Positions 10,871 through 63,016 of a stretch of DNA of 64,000 nucleotides are shown here, one piece after another. The stretch's first letter is position 1, and the number at the start of each line of letters is the position of its first letter. The notes beneath the pieces were generated by a model that searched no databases, had not been told where the DNA came from, and saw only the letters and a list, made by a program, of their open reading frames with translations. Location of the stretch: NCBI GenBank assembly GCA_038916785.1, contig JBCLBO010000002.1:21085-85084 (forward strand), given 5' to 3'. Source of the stretch: Candidatus Hydrogenedentales bacterium. GTDB taxonomy: Bacteria; Hydrogenedentota; Hydrogenedentia; Hydrogenedentales; GCA-2746185. The position numbers and the translations under genes were made by a program.

Positions 10871-11096
10871 TATGGGAAGTATGGGAGGAATGGGAGGAAT
10901 GGGAACTATGGGACGGGGGAGCTGTTGAGAAAGCCGAATTTACAAGTTTGTCACGTTCGCTCGACCGTTGAGAAGTCTGTTTTCGTTGGTGTTTTCATCA
11001 AGCGAGTTCGTCATGTAGGTGCCATTTGGATGGAGAACTGGGCTTTTTTCAACAGCTCCACGGGATCCCATTTCTCCCATTACTCCCATACTTCCT
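10871..11096. repeat. Nested intergenic palindrome with 9-nt-periodic arms (ATGGGAGGA type)
   Basis: The left arm (10871-10913) is TATGGGAAG TATGGGAGG AATGGGAGG AATGGGAAC TATGGGAC. The right arm (11066-11096) is its near-complement. An inner arm pair lies at 10919-10935 and 11041-11059 (GAGCTGTTGAGAAAGCC / GGCTTTTTTCAACAGCTC). The core is AT-richer. It sits between convergent genes. Confidence 0.75.
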
Positions 11097-14116: not shown

Positions 14117-14268
14117 CAGAAGGAAACGAAGAGAACGAAGAACTGATTCATTGCGATTGCTTGGCGGTAGGGCAAAAAAATGCCAAGTAGAATTGATCTA
14201 TCAGTGTTTTGTCTCAATCGAACCGCGCGTGGAATTAAGCGGTTCTTTGTTCCCTTCGTTGCCTTCTG
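14117..14268. repeat. Nested intergenic palindrome with 9-nt-periodic arms (GAAACGAAG type)
   Basis: The left arm CAGAAGGAAACGAAGAGAACGAAGAAC (14117-14143) and the right arm GTTCTTTGTTCCCTTCGTTGCCTTCTG (14242-14268) flank an AT-rich core of about 100 bp. Confidence 0.7.
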
Positions 14269-27527: not shown

Positions 27528-28415
27528 TCAAAACATCCAACCGATCGAGAATAGCACGGTGTAGAGCACGAGCGCAGCGCCGGTGCGCGCGAGGACGGCG
27601 TTGAGTTCGCGCGGGTCGGTGTAGCGGAAGATGGCGAGGATGTTGGGAATCGCGAAGAGGAACGATGCGGCGGCGAGCAGGACCCACTGGTGATCCTTCG
27701 TTTGCGAGGCGAGGTAGGCCGGCACACCGATGGCCGCGGCGACCAGGCACAGGACGTACTCCGCGCGCGCGAAGTTCTTGCCGTAGCGCGCGGCTAGGGT
27801 GTGTTTTCCGGCGGCGCGATCGCCGTCGATGTCGCGCAGGTTGTTGACGGTGAGGATCGCGACCGAAAACAATCCCGGCGCGAAGGAGGCCGCGATCACC
27901 TGCGGCGGCACCTCGAAGGCCATAAGGTAGTAGCTGCCGCAGACGGCGACCGGGCCGAAGAACGCCAGCACAAAGGCCTCGCCCCAGCCGTGGTAGCCGA
28001 GCGGATAGGGCCCGCCGGTGTAGGCGAGCCCACTGGCGATCGAGGCGACGCCGATCAGCAGGTACAGCAGCCCGCCGCGCGACATGATGTAGAGCCCGGG
28101 AATGAAGACCGCGGCAAACGTGAGAATGATCGCGCCCTTCATCACCTGCGGCTTGATGAGGCTCGAGGCCACCGCGCGCGGCGGGCCCATGCGATTGGCG
28201 TCGGTGCCGCGCACGCCGTCGGAGTAGTCGTTGGCGAAGTTCGTCCCGATTTGGATAAGCAGCGCGCCGAGCAGACACGCGACGAATGAAGGCGCGTGAA
28301 AGAAGCCGGCTTCCGCTGCCATCGCCGCCGCGAGGATCACCGGGCATGCGCCTGCGGGGAGGGTTTTGGGCCGAAGGGCGAGCAGCCAGCGATTTTGGGA
28401 GGAGGGATTAGCCAC
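27528..28415 (-). CDS. menA: 1,4-dihydroxy-2-naphthoate polyprenyltransferase (UbiA family)
   Basis: Polytopic membrane protein with NDYSDGVRGTD (NxxxDxxxD). The GTG start lies inside a repeat arm, so the exact start is uncertain. Confidence 0.85.
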   Translation of the reverse strand: MANPSSQNRWLLALRPKTLPAGACPVILAAAMAAEAGFFHAPSFVACLLGALLIQIGTNFANDYSDGVRGTDANRMGPPRAVASSLIKPQVMKGAIILTFAAVFIPGLYIMSRGGLLYLLIGVASIASGLAYTGGPYPLGYHGWGEAFVLAFFGPVAVCGSYYLMAFEVPPQVIAASFAPGLFSVAILTVNNLRDIDGDRAAGKHTLAARYGKNFARAEYVLCLVAAAIGVPAYLASQTKDHQWVLLAAASFLFAIPNILAIFRYTDPRELNAVLARTGAALVLYTVLFSIGWMF

Positions 28416-47998: not shown

Positions 47999-48191
47999 CT
48001 AAATAGCCGGTGATCAATCTGAGACACTGGTGTGTTCTCCACGCCGGAACCTTCACTTTTGTCATTCTGAGCGGTAGCGAAGAATCTCCCCGCCGGTCCG
48101 CCGAAAGACATACCCTGATCTGGCCGCAACGGGCCCAGCGCGATCTATTTCTGCACAGTGAAGTGATCCAGGTATACCACCGGCTATTTAG
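47999..48191 (+). mobile_element. 193-bp MITE-like element, copy 1
   Basis: Terminal inverted repeats CTAAATAGCCGGTG (47999-48012) and CACCGGCTATTTAG (48178-48191). It has no coding capacity and appears identical to the reverse complement of 62604-62796. TA is present at both junctions. Confidence 0.8.
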
Positions 48192-48261
48192 ATGAGAAGC
48201 ATGATCTGAGATGGCTTCGGCTTGCGTGTCTCGGCGTTCCTTGCGTACTCTGTTCAATCGT

Positions 48262-49422
48262 ATGCGCGACGATTTTCATAACGAACTCGACCGGCTCGAC
48301 GCCGAGGGACTGCGGCGCCGGTTGCACGCCTTGCCCGAAGCGGGCGGACTGCTCGAGATCGACGGCCGGCCCGTGATCAATTTCTCGTCGAACGACTACC
48401 TGGATCTCGCGAACGACCCGCGTCTCAAGCGCGCGGGACAAGAGGCCATCGAGCGCTTCGGCTCCGGCGCGACGGCCTCGCGGCTGATGACCGGCCACCT
48501 GGACCTGCACGAGACGCTCGAGGCGCAACTCGCGGCGCTCACGCATCACGAGGCCGCGCTCGTGTTTCCCAGCGGATACCAGGCGAACGTAGGCGCGTTG
48601 CAGGCGCTCGCAGGCCCCGGCGACGCGATTTTTTCCGACGCGCTCAACCACGCGAGCCTGGTGGACGGCTGCCGCCTATCGCGCGCGCAGGTCCATATAT
48701 ATAGGCACGCGGATGTTGCCCACCTCGCAGCGCTGCTCCGCACCTGTGACACGCCGGGCCGCCGCATCGTGATCACGGACGCGGTCTTTAGCATGGACGG
48801 CGACCTCGCCCCGCTGCGCGAAGTAGCGGAGGCCGCGCATGCGCACGACGCGTTCCTCTATGTCGACGAAGCGCACGGCTTCGGCATCTACGGCGCAGGC
48901 GCGGGACTCAGCGCCGAATTCGGCGTGAAGCCAGACGCGATCTCGGCCAATCTCGCCAAGGCCCTCGGCGGCGGCGGCGGATTCGTCGCCGGTTCGGCGG
49001 AGTTCATCGATCTGCTCGTGAACCGCGCGCGCAGCTTTATCTTCTCCACTGGGCTCGCGCCGGCTTGCGTGGGCGCGGGGATCGAGGCCGCGCGCATCGT
49101 GATGACCGAGCCGGGCCTCGGCGCGGAATTGCTCGCGCGCGCCGCGTTCTTCCGCGCGGAGCTGCGGCGCGCGGGCGTCGACGTGCCCGATCACCGCTCC
49201 GCCATCATCCCGATCATCGTCGGGTCGAACGAAACGGCATTGGCACTCTCCGACGCACTCTTCGAGCGCGGCATCCTCGAGACCGCCATCCGTCCGCCTT
49301 CGGTCCCCTACGGCACCGCGCGCCTGCGCCTCTCGGTCACGCTCGCGCACACCCGCGACGACCTCGCGCGCGCGGCGCAGACCATCGCGGAGGTGCTGCA
49401 CGCCGCGAAGGTCAAGAACTGA
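48262..49422 (+). CDS. bioF: 8-amino-7-oxononanoate synthase
   Basis: Start chosen at [12 protein letters not shown] (the ORF opens at 48211). Motifs: [21 protein letters not shown], and the PLP-lysine region [11 protein letters not shown]. Confidence 0.9.
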
Positions 49423-49426
49423 TTCA

Positions 49427-49644
49427 CCACGAAGGACACGAAGGACACGAAGAAACCACCAAACACCGTCGTTACGAGGAGCACCCCCTGCATCGTCATG
49501 CGAGGAGCGCGGTTGCGACGAAGCAATCTCTTCGGCCCGCGCCCGCGCGATCGTGATGTTGCCAGACCGCAAGATTGCTTCGTCGCTCCGCTCCTCGCAA
49601 TGACGATGTTGAGGCCCCCTTCGCGTTCTTCGTGTCCTTCGTGG
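49427..49644. repeat. Nested palindrome with 9-nt-periodic arms (CACGAAGGA type) inside the bio operon
   Basis: Outer arms: CCACGAAGGACACGAAGGACACGAAGAA (49427-54) and TTCTTCGTGTCCTTCGTGG (49626-44). Inner arms: 49495-49530 and 49571-49604 (GTCATGCGAGGAGCG..GCGACGAAGCAATCTC and its complement). Confidence 0.8.
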
Positions 49645-49701
49645 TTCAATAGTCCCGATCCCAATTCATCCTCATTCACCTGTGGCTGATTGTTGCCCTC
49701 A

Positions 49702-50430
49702 ATGACTTCGCGCGGCTACTTCATCACCGGCACGGACACCGGCGTCGGCAAGACGGCGGTGACCGCCGCGATCCTGCGCCTGCTGCGCGCGCGGGGGGTG
49801 AACGCGGCGACGATGAAGCCGGTGCAAACCGGCGCGGTCCTGTGCGACGGCATGTGGATGGCGCCGGACCTCGCGCTGCACCACGCCGGCGCGGGGTTCC
49901 GGCCGCCGGTCGAGCATATCCGGCTCATGCAGCCGTATTGCTACGAGCCCGCGTGTTCGCCACATCTCGCCGGGCGCATGGCGGGACACTATCCCGAACT
50001 CGCGCAGATCGAGGCGAACGCGCGGCAACTTCTCCATCTATACGATATCCTGTTGCTCGAGGGCGCGGGCGGCATTTACGCGCCGCTCACGGAGACCGAA
50101 ACGACGCTCGATCTCATGCGGCGGCTGGCGATGCCGGTGATCCTCGTGGCTCGGCGCGGGCTGGGCACCATCAACCACACGCTGCTGTCGCTCGATGTCT
50201 TGCGGCGCGCGGGCTTGAGCGTGGCGGGCGTCATTTTCAATGAAACGGAGAACGTGCCCGTGGACTTCATCCGCGCGGACAACCCGCGCGCGATCGAGGC
50301 TTTCGGCAAGGTCCCGATATTGGGTAACATGGACCACTTGCCCGGATTCGACGCGGATCCGGGCAAGGCGTTGCGCGGTTCCGAACGATTTTTCCCGGGG
50401 CTCGCGACGATTTTTCCCGAACTGGGATGA
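49702..50430 (+). CDS. bioD: Dethiobiotin synthetase
   Basis: Start at MTSRGYFITGTDTGVGKT (P-loop). LLEGAGG follows. Confidence 0.9.
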   Translation: MTSRGYFITGTDTGVGKTAVTAAILRLLRARGVNAATMKPVQTGAVLCDGMWMAPDLALHHAGAGFRPPVEHIRLMQPYCYEPACSPHLAGRMAGHYPELAQIEANARQLLHLYDILLLEGAGGIYAPLTETETTLDLMRRLAMPVILVARRGLGTINHTLLSLDVLRRAGLSVAGVIFNETENVPVDFIRADNPRAIEAFGKVPILGNMDHLPGFDADPGKALRGSERFFPGLATIFPELG

Positions 50431-51755
50431 AGCCGATGGCGATTCACACGGACACGCTGCAAGACCTGGACTATCGCCACTTGTGGCATCCCTACACCGG
50501 CGCGAACGCCTACGAGGCGGCGCCGTGGACCTGTTTCGAGCGGGGCGAAGGCGTGTACTTGTACGACCGCGAGGGCCGCGCGGTGCTCGACGGCATTGCG
50601 TCCTGGTGGGCGGTCGCGCTGGGGCACAGTCATCCCCGGATCGTCGCCGCGATCCGCGCGCAGGCGGGCGTGCTGCAGCACGCGATCCTCGGCAATCAGA
50701 CGCATCCGCTCGCGGTGAAACTCGCCGCGCGCCTCGCGCAGATGACCCCGGCGGGCCTGACGCGCTGCTATTTCGCCTCCGATGGCGCAAGCGCGACCGA
50801 AGCCGCGCTGAAAATCGCGATCCAGTATTGGCACAACAAAGGCGTGCGCGGGAAAACCCGCTTCGTCGCGCTCGACGAGGGCTACCACGGCGACACGCTC
50901 GGCGCGGTCGGCGTCGGCTTCGTGCCGAGCTTTCATGCGCCCTTCGACGGTGCGGTCGTGAAGTCCTTCGTCGCGCCCACGCCGCACCGCGCGGGCAATC
51001 CCGACGATGGCGCGGACCGCGCGCACGCGCTCGAAGCCTTCGCGGCGATGGAGCGGATCGTCGACGAGCACGAATCGGCGATTGCGGGAATCATCCTCGA
51101 ACCGCTCTGCCAGGGCGCGGCGGGCATCCGCATCTATCACCCCGAATACCTGCGCCGCGTGCGCGCACTGTGCGACGCGCGCGGGCTGCTGCTGATTGCC
51201 GACGAGATCGCGGTCGGCTTCGGCCGCACGGGCGGCGTGTTTGCCTGCGACGTCGCCGGCATCGCGCCCGATATCCTGTGCATGGGCAAGGCGCTGACGG
51301 GCGGCACGCTGCCGATGAGCGCCGCGATCGTCACCGACGCGATCTACGACACCTTCCGCAGCGAGCCTGGCCGCGACCGCACCTTCTACGACGGCCACAC
51401 CTTCTGCGGCAACCCGATCACGAGCGCGGCCGCGCTCGCCTTCCTCGACGCCTTCGAGCAGGAGCGCGTGATGGACAAGGTCGCCGCGCGCGCGCCGCAG
51501 CTGGCTGAGGGCATGGCCCGCCTCGCGCGAAATTCTGCCGTGCACTTTCATAAATCGCTCGGGATGATCGGCATGGTCGCGCTCACGGCGGAGTCCGGCG
51601 GCCCCGCGCTCGCCCAGCAGATCGCGCGACGCGCGCTCGATGGCGGCCTTTTCATCCGCCCGCTGGGAAGTGTGCTGTACCTCTGGCCGCCGCTGAGCAC
51701 CACCGAATCCGAACTGGATCGAATGCTCGAACTATTCGCGCGCGCAATGCCGTAG
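50427..51755 (+). CDS. bioA: Adenosylmethionine-8-amino-7-oxononanoate aminotransferase
   Basis: LWHPYT, the DEIAVGFGRTG motif, and the PLP lysine in CMGKALTGG. It overlaps the bioD stop (ATGA). Confidence 0.95.
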   Translation: MKPMAIHTDTLQDLDYRHLWHPYTGANAYEAAPWTCFERGEGVYLYDREGRAVLDGIASWWAVALGHSHPRIVAAIRAQAGVLQHAILGNQTHPLAVKLAARLAQMTPAGLTRCYFASDGASATEAALKIAIQYWHNKGVRGKTRFVALDEGYHGDTLGAVGVGFVPSFHAPFDGAVVKSFVAPTPHRAGNPDDGADRAHALEAFAAMERIVDEHESAIAGIILEPLCQGAAGIRIYHPEYLRRVRALCDARGLLLIADEIAVGFGRTGGVFACDVAGIAPDILCMGKALTGGTLPMSAAIVTDAIYDTFRSEPGRDRTFYDGHTFCGNPITSAAALAFLDAFEQERVMDKVAARAPQLAEGMARLARNSAVHFHKSLGMIGMVALTAESGGPALAQQIARRALDGGLFIRPLGSVLYLWPPLSTTESELDRMLELFARAMP

Positions 51756-62876: not shown

Positions 62877-63016
62877 GAAAGGGGGTTACGCGACGAGACT
62901 GCTTCGTCGCGATCGCGCTTCTCGGAATGACGGTCAGCGGTTTGTGCGGACGCGCAAGTTGCTAGGGGCCTACATGATATTCTGAGCGTCCGAATCCGTC
63001 CGGGGAGGTCCCATCC

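Follow-up and report, generated by a model that had tools for sequence, protein, structure and literature searches.

A mosaic of nuclease-associated hairpin repeats probably fills the bioF-bioD junction of a bacterial biotin operon

The 279 nt that separate bioF from bioD (49423-49701) in the biotin operon studied here are, in all probability, a mosaic of non-coding, nuclease-associated hairpin repeats, accumulated in a stop/start junction in which the two genes formerly overlapped by 4 nt. Every module of this mosaic is a dispersed repeat recurring at dozens of unrelated loci, and genomic context links each of them to a nuclease gene. For the locus itself the result is mostly deflationary, as it points to repeat litter in an operon junction and not to a biotin regulator.

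Results

Organization of the bioF-bioD gap

The analysed DNA, a stretch of 64,000 nucleotides referred to below as the window, comes from a metagenome-assembled genome of 3.4 Mb (168 contigs, 86% complete). Genes on both sides of the gap are intact and collinear on a contig of 95 kb (Table 1); the TIGR00858 score of bioF lies just at the threshold (426, with a cut-off of 426.45). In agreement with the original prediction, the bioD stop and the bioA start overlap by 4 nt (ATGA), and the separation of bioF and bioD, given there as about 280 nt, amounts to 279 nt. A clear Shine-Dalgarno-like motif was found ahead of none of the three genes bioF, bioD and bioA, and because it is missing at bioF and bioA too, its absence at bioD is uninformative.

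Table 1 Genes and repeat modules at the bioF-bioD junction, with positions in the window
Feature	Position	Strand	Annotation
bioF, 8-amino-7-oxononanoate synthase	48211..49422	+	NCBIfam TIGR00858, 426 bits
Left outer arm, family A	49423..49454		Terminus TTCACC and three phased 9-mers
Degenerate half-unit CCGTCGTTACGAGGAGC	49466..49482	+	Copies the 5' half of the inner unit
Left inner arm, Ssn-related-motif-like unit CGTCAT-GCGAGGAGCGCGGTTGCGACGAAGCAATCTC	49494..49531	+	~50 genome copies
Central spacer, apical loop	49532..49570		Between both inner units
Right inner arm, inner unit CGTCATTGCGAGGAGCGGAGCGACGAAGCAATCTT	49571..49605	-	Inverted partner of the left inner arm
Right outer arm, family A	49619..49649		CTTCGCGTTCTTCGTGTCCTTCGTGG and terminus TTCAA
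Orphan right arm, third periodic-arm family, CCCAATTCATCCTCATTCACCTGTGGCTGA	49660..49689		Matches arm ends elsewhere
bioD, dethiobiotin synthase, intact	49702..50430	+	NCBIfam TIGR00347, 142 bits
bioA	50427..51755	+	NCBIfam TIGR00508, 466 bits

The nested palindrome proposed for the gap is real. Its arms are recovered by repeat search, and the RNA fold of 49420-49660 reaches -122.5 kcal/mol, compared with -75.1 +/- 4.7 kcal/mol for shuffled sequences (z = -10.1; 0 of 200 as good), while the DNA fold gives -73.1 kcal/mol (z = -9.9). According to the inverted-repeat search, the outer arms pair over 27 nt (49426-49452 with 49619-49645) with 93% complementarity, including a perfect 18-nt register (49437-49454 with 49626-49643). 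The 9-nt period claimed for them is genuine as well: three phased 9-mers, CACGAAGGA, CACGAAGGA and CACGAAGAA, occupy positions 49428-49454, and the reverse complement of the right arm reads CACGAAGGA, CACGAAGAA and CGCGAAGGG, the two arms being inverted and composed of three phased words each.

Within this frame, the inner arms extend over ~37 nt (about 49491-49531 and 49571-49610). They match in exact blocks of 15, 11 and 9 nt, interrupted by a 1-nt indel and by a differing middle (GCGGTT vs GGA), and the left one has a 1-nt deletion relative to the consensus CGTCATTGCGAG. The central spacer is GC-rich and partly similar in the inverted-pair copies C26, C111 and C89. For the half-unit at 49466-49482, the inverted-repeat search indicates a possible alternative pairing with 49590-49610, and the arrangement of half-unit followed by full unit (49466-49531) is also seen in copies of MITE-A, an element described below.

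An orphan arm of a further family, overlooked in the original prediction, is located in the final 40 nt of the gap. It matches arm ends TCATCCTCATTCATCTGTGGCTAAAA on C28, C12 and C87 with 92-95% identity, and no partner for it was found within the gap.

Outer and inner arms, half-unit and orphan arm together indicate that the 279-nt gap is mostly repeat-derived. Most of the gap had been suggested to be one element; the nested hairpin fills it, but the content is a mosaic of three dispersed repeats. Four periodic inverted arm words, the number originally counted, are indeed present in the window: ATGGGAGGA near 10871, AACGAAGRG near 14126, ACGGATTAG at 28414/28918, and CACGAAGGA at the bioF-bioD gap.

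The junction in related genomes

We searched for bioD in 40 relatives and read the bioF-bioD junction in the 18 with a match. In the congener G001 the bioF stop and the bioD start overlap in TAATG (...AAGGTGTAATGCCC...), and an abutting or overlapping arrangement is also seen in G007, G009, G013 and G010, which represent four other genera of the family; in G017 and G005 the distance between them is ~10 nt. Because the genes overlap or abut in G001 and in the four further genera, the comparison identifies the gap as an insertion, as had been proposed, and not as an ancestral spacer, and it indicates an ancestral junction that was coupled. The bioF product ends in …K V K N before the stop here vs …K V in the empty-site G001, and these altered last codons show that the original stop was replaced by the insertion. 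The spacing in relatives, recommended as a check, turned out not to be conserved, with an empty site in G001 and varied fillings elsewhere.

These fillings differ even at close range. The closest relative, G004, whose bioD is 87% identical, has the same altered bioF tail, ending in KVKT vs KVKN here, followed by a degenerate left arm TTCATCACGAAATACCCGAAGGGCGAC. Only this left junction is shared; the interior is a different palindrome (GGGAGGGTCGCGCTCCCGCGCGACC…) and there is no right arm. The junction of G002 (L035, reverse strand, about 1470-1495) contains solely a 17-nt mini-palindrome, TTGAATCACGTGGTGAA, which reads as the two family-A termini joined directly, with no interior left between them; it would be the footprint of a deletion or else a minimal seed form. 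In G003, 125 nt of unrelated GC hairpins are present. Inserts with different arms, built of CCACAGAGG words, were found between bioF and bioD in G012 (~590 nt) and G008 (~240 nt), both of another genus, and the insert in G012 includes one copy of the inner unit. Judged from these sequences, the content of the site turns over fast between close relatives.

The G004 junction (L211, first 520 bases, reverse strand) is filled by yet another family of hairpin repeats, GGTCGCGCGGGAGCGCGACC, which is frequently lengthened to GGGAGGGTCGCGC…. This repeat also occurs at G000 C26:12515-12535 and C35:8880-8900, and it sits within the C26 family-A element.

A palindrome could in principle arise as a fold-back chimera in a metagenome-assembled genome, and the source consists of 168 contigs at 86% completeness, repeats often confuse or break assemblies, and the G004 contigs end near the bioF-bioD site. 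The arms, however, are imperfect copies that differ by mismatches, by a 1-nt indel and in their middles, which argues against a fold-back artefact. Related junction fillings are moreover present in independent assemblies, and the genes to either side are unbroken and in collinear order on the 95-kb contig, so that an assembly artefact seems barely credible.

Outer arms and GxxExxY genes

The outer arms belong to family A, a word array with the terminus TTCACCACGAAG which is represented by ~25 arms, including eight pairs, in the same genome. Family-A copies share the termini TTCACCACG…CGTGGTGAA. The paired copies enclose interiors of 34 to 1164 nt that are unrelated in content, and no target-site duplication was detected at any of the eight.

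Thirty PF13366 (GxxExxY) loci of the family were taken for arm inspection, and three-word phased inverted arms surround the gene in 17 of them. In one locus of G004 (L172), arms GATTCACCACGAAGCGCACGAAGGACACGAAGAA and their complement (167-200 and 664-697) bracket an ORF of a 123-aa GxxExxY protein. These are family-A arms, which share the terminus GATTCACCACGAAG and the words of the arms between bioF and bioD. A PF13366 gene of G005 (L174) likewise lies between two family-A hairpins. The genome under study has seven PF13366 matches, corresponding to about six genes, which are accompanied by the arm words ACGGATTAG, ACAGGATT, CACAGATT or AACGAAGRG, or have no detected arms; a GxxExxY gene with CACGAAG arms was not found in this 86%-complete assembly. 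A search for a coding remnant, using the G004 GxxExxY protein in tblastn against the gap and the inserts of relatives, gave no significant match. Since arms of the same family surround PF13366 genes in relatives, we regard the outer arms as a gene-less copy of a GxxExxY-type cassette. PF05635 (23S IVS protein) was also considered as a partner and rejected, being represented by a single gene, on C73, with different arms.

At the spacer positions of the 9-mers, arms match with a frequency of 0.59 within elements vs 0.54 between elements (n = 9). The match being no better within than between elements, selection for pairing at these positions is not supported, and the conserved feature is the phased word and not perfect pairing.

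Terminal inverted repeats with a conserved terminus, together with a second copy that has both arm types (C26:12446-12720, 75% identity), would also be expected if a DDE transposase recognising the 27-nt repeats had mobilised a single MITE as a whole. This explanation is nevertheless very unlikely, considering that 0 of 8 paired copies have a target-site duplication, that interiors differ in size (34 to 1164 nt) and are unrelated, and that the gene bracketed by the arms in relatives encodes a nuclease, not a transposase.

Solo family-A arms often stand beside another dispersed repeat, CGTAGCATGGGCGGCTCGCCCATGCGGGT, with GTAACAA / TTGTTAG-like ends. It was observed at G000 C3:73870-73940, C94:60-130, C104:8930-9010 and C37:5450-5520.

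Inner arms and the 33-nt unit

Each inner arm is a copy of a 33-nt unit, CGTCATTGCGAGGAGC…GCGACGAAGCAATC, and the two copies are inverted. The unit has the consensus ATTGCGAGGAGCGCGGTTGCGACGAAGCAATCT, preceded by CGTC, and the genome contains ~50 copies, of which ~25 to 30 are within the TIR-bounded MITE-A and the rest stand alone or form inverted pairs. Exact matches to a 27-base pattern taken from this sequence were found in at least 120 loci in more than ten phylum-level groups, including Alpha- and Gammaproteobacteria, Chloroflexota, Desulfobacterota, Bacteroidota and Verrucomicrobiota, and also Patescibacteria, Omnitrophota, Armatimonadota, Latescibacterota, Fibrobacterota and Binatia. 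A looser pattern gave 140, 29, 12 and 41 occurrences in four of five sampled genomes and 0 in the remaining one, which is a Chloroflexus MAG; with the pattern reversed as a control, the count was 0.

The only small GIY-YIG gene in the genome (C41:7159-7371; PF01541, 62 bits) has CGTCATTGCGAGGAG…GCAATCTC units on either side, in the form of CGTCATTGCGAGGAGG…GGCAATCTC upstream and a reverse copy downstream. The same arrangement surrounds the genes of its best homologs, which come from Chryseobacterium, a Patescibacteria MAG, an Omnitrophota MAG and Bradyrhizobium; a forward unit upstream and a reverse unit downstream were seen in G041 and G042, and variant copies in G044 and G045. The C41 protein has no match in NCBIfam, and its matches in PDB are weak ones to UPF0213 GIY-YIG proteins.

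A repeat of 28 nt named NTS, CGTCATTCCCGCGMAVGCGGGAATCYRG, has been described in Neisseria, where the GIY-YIG nuclease SsnA cuts ssDNA 5' of NTS, and only on the strand of the motif; NTS/SRM motifs, for which the search string HGTCWYN(0-2)YYVSBRHN(0-5)WNVSBRGN(0-2)RNCYNB is available, typically flank ssn genes (Chenal et al. 2025, Nat Commun 16:2388; PMC11893778). The oriented tags of SRM are present in both inner arms, as CGTCAT-GCGAG…GCAATCTC at 49494-49531 on the plus strand and as CGTCATTGCGAG…GCAATCTT at 49605-49571 on the minus strand. The search string matches NTS and none of the units of the own-genome or Bradyrhizobium type, and it has 0 matches in 49400-49720 on either strand. A single inner unit forms only ATTGC/GCAAT and three inner pairs, with energies of -2.7 to -6.9 kcal/mol, which are no better than those of shuffles (z from -0.4 to +0.5). 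Compensated inner stems characterize variants of the unit in other genomes (GGCC-GAA-GGCC, GCGC-GAA-GCGC and TCCC-GTA-GGGA). Because of the missing match to the SRM string, the weak single hairpins and the lack of a cd10448 assignment, we assign the inner arms to an SRM-like variant with a putative Ssn-like GIY-YIG partner, and do not count them as plain members.

Neither repeat has a match in Rfam (gap region at E up to 1, seven loci from other phyla at E up to 0.1), and a literature search by literal repeat sequence returned primer coincidences only. A reading of the inner unit as a K-turn or hammerhead-like RNA was dropped, as nothing beyond a purine-rich internal loop supported it.

We have also addressed REP/REPIN elements mobilised by a RAYT (Y1 HUH transposase), as inverted doublets of a short imperfect palindrome look REPIN-like and the genome has five clear Y1_Tnp (PF01797) genes and three weak matches. 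Yet neither family-A arms nor the 33-nt unit occur within 700 nt of any of the five clear genes, and the unit flanks GIY-YIG genes instead, which makes mobilisation of this kind extremely unlikely.

Half-units and units in other settings were recorded during the survey. MITE-A, TGCTCYGTTGAAAACCCCGCCTAAACC … GGGGGACCATTTCAACAGAGCA, is TIR-bounded and has ~25-30 copies (e.g. G000 C16:19230-19400, C3:900-1070 and C66:6760-6930, all beyond the window), with one full Ssn-type unit after 0-3 tandem copies of the 5' half (GTCATTGCGAGGAGCGCGGTTGC and CCCCCAC). Beside the Ssn-like gene of the Omnitrophota MAG (L203 1375-1490 and 1836-1990), the tandem 5'-half array CTGTCATTGCGGGCCATAGT, five or more, is followed by a full unit. 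Half-units may be amplified incidentally when DNA is cut 5' of the motif. Upstream of bioF, a 193-bp TIR element (47999-48191) holds a variant unit, GTCATTCTGAGCGGTAGCGAAGAATC, at 48065-48100, with the stem ATTC/GAAT instead of ATTGC/GCAAT. At ~62880-62960 (C2:83980-84040), another Ssn-type unit stands next to a periodic arm, the diverged unit GTCATTCCGAGAAGCGCGATCGCGACGAAGCAGTCT adjoining the ACGGATT-type arm CACGGATTTAACGGATTGGACGGATCGG. On C111 (2396-3593), two inverted composites of a family-A arm, Ssn-type units and the MITE-A left end bracket a PhyH-like dioxygenase gene; the genes on either side share a ...DPRYQALLRRMNFPE tail, so that a larger inverted duplication is present.

Consequences for the biotin operon

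The insertion removed the stop/start overlap, and translational coupling of bioF and bioD would thereby be lost. Uncoupling of bioF from bioDA, as originally predicted, is thus kept at the level of translational coupling, but not on the terminator or attenuator basis put forward for it. No T-run was found beside the stem, as the right arm is followed by GGTTCAATAGTCCC and on the other strand by GGTGAATCAGTTCTTG, which is not the configuration of an intrinsic terminator. A consensus scan of 49423-49701 detected neither a terminator-like site nor a sigma-70-type promoter. Together with modules that are dispersed and an interior that differs in G004, these results speak against a terminator or attenuator.

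They bear equally on the broader explanation by a functional cis-acting RNA, be it a terminator, an attenuator or a processing/stability site, that would be under selection for adjusting the bioF : bioDA expression ratio. Such a role would suit the very stable RNA fold (-122.5 kcal/mol, z = -10), the intra-operonic position in place of the stop/start overlap, and the presence in G004 of a strong, though different, hairpin at the junction. We consider it improbable, since in addition to the lacking T-run and terminator consensus, the element is missing in the congener G001 and in most genera of the family, all of its modules are dispersed at unrelated loci, and its interior is replaced in the closest relative, G004.

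We infer that the hairpin has no dedicated role in biotin control. Its most likely consequence at the RNA level is plausibly cutting of the predicted 27-bp outer stem by RNase III, as a side effect, in the manner of Correia elements and of intervening sequences in rRNA. Some hairpin at this junction could still be useful, considering that G004 and the genome studied here both keep very strong hairpins of different sequence. The element could also have acquired a part in processing or stabilizing the mRNA.

Discussion

The preferred explanation, a mosaic of nuclease-associated hairpin repeats, can be resolved into three layers. The first would be a gene-less hairpin cassette with arms of three phased CACGAAG words, the complete form of which, in sister species, holds a gene for a GxxExxY PD-(D/E)XK nuclease. 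Nested in it, the second layer would consist of an inverted pair of the 33-nt NTS/SRM-type unit, the kind of repeat that flanks genes of small GIY-YIG ssDNA nucleases. The third would be an orphan arm left from another cassette family. These modules may have spread at the DNA level via single-stranded hairpin intermediates, with nucleases acting in trans. Effects on the operon would be side effects, the read-through mRNA being predicted to fold into an interrupted stem of ~100 bp.

Ssn-type units are located inside five of eight family-A hairpins vs one of 12 family-B hairpins. This nesting is far above chance. That the two nuclease-repeat systems interact physically, with single-strand-specific Ssn elements homing into extruded GxxExxY hairpins or replacing the nuclease gene, is conceivable but doubtful. 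In that case, overlaps of stop and start codons like that of bioF and bioD would be favoured targets, struck independently in two or more genera, and both repeat types would spread by a so far undescribed route based on ssDNA.

Beyond the biotin operon, the outer arms provide a well-documented case of a GxxExxY hairpin, including an empty site, a relative that shares the junction, and gene-bearing relatives. The near-invariant 33-nt unit, present in more than ten phyla, is now tied to Ssn-like GIY-YIG genes. As the published SRM string misses this unit, the Ssn/repeat system probably reaches further than has been estimated. To our knowledge, the activity shown so far for Ssn is limited to ssDNA cutting, by the Neisseria and Wolbachia homologs. 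With nested repeats and fast turnover at a single junction, the locus offers a concrete site for studying repeat movement.

Compared with GxxExxY periodic-arm cassettes, for which we found no published description of the linked hairpins in the literature, the element between bioF and bioD has the same inverted arms of three phased ~9-nt words and the same position between operon genes, directly behind a stop codon. Copies with a gene are in the minority in both, arms of one family surround a PF13366 gene in relatives, and presence or absence is polymorphic at orthologous junctions, as illustrated by the empty site in G001 and the 17-nt remnant in G002. What sets the copy studied here apart is its interior, a pair of Ssn-type repeats.

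Correia elements of Neisseria and ORF-bearing intervening sequences (IVS) of 23S rRNA are co-transcribed with their surroundings, and their terminal repeats form a dsRNA stem that is cut by RNase III. The element described here resembles them as an inverted-repeat element co-transcribed with host genes and with a long stem of terminal repeats, 27 bp as predicted. Correia elements differ in their TA duplications and fixed interior, whereas duplications are absent at family-A copies, and IVS are found in rRNA, whereas the bioF-bioD element is part of an mRNA.

Similarity of the inner unit to NTS/SRM comprises the CGTCATT … AATC(C/T) tags, their orientation and a similar length, as well as high copy number and intergenic location. 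It extends to gene context, as inverted copies stand on either side of a small single-domain GIY-YIG gene in this genome and in members of four other phyla. Differences are seen in the core, which is ATTGCGAG…GAAGCAAT in the inner unit and ATTCCCGCG…CGCGGGAAT in NTS, and in folding, as a single inner unit is a weak hairpin and usually belongs to an inverted pair that forms a long one.

REP/REPIN/BIME repeats, discussed beside SRM in the same study (PMC11893778), offer the remaining parallel. Like those associated with RAYT in E. coli and Pseudomonas, the repeats described here are short imperfect palindromes in inverted doublets. They build intergenic mosaics of different repeat types, and a cognate nuclease-type gene is flanked by its own repeats. 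The genes, however, are of the GIY-YIG and PD-(D/E)XK (GxxExxY) kinds and not HUH Y1 transposases, and the outer arms consist of three phased words instead of one palindrome.
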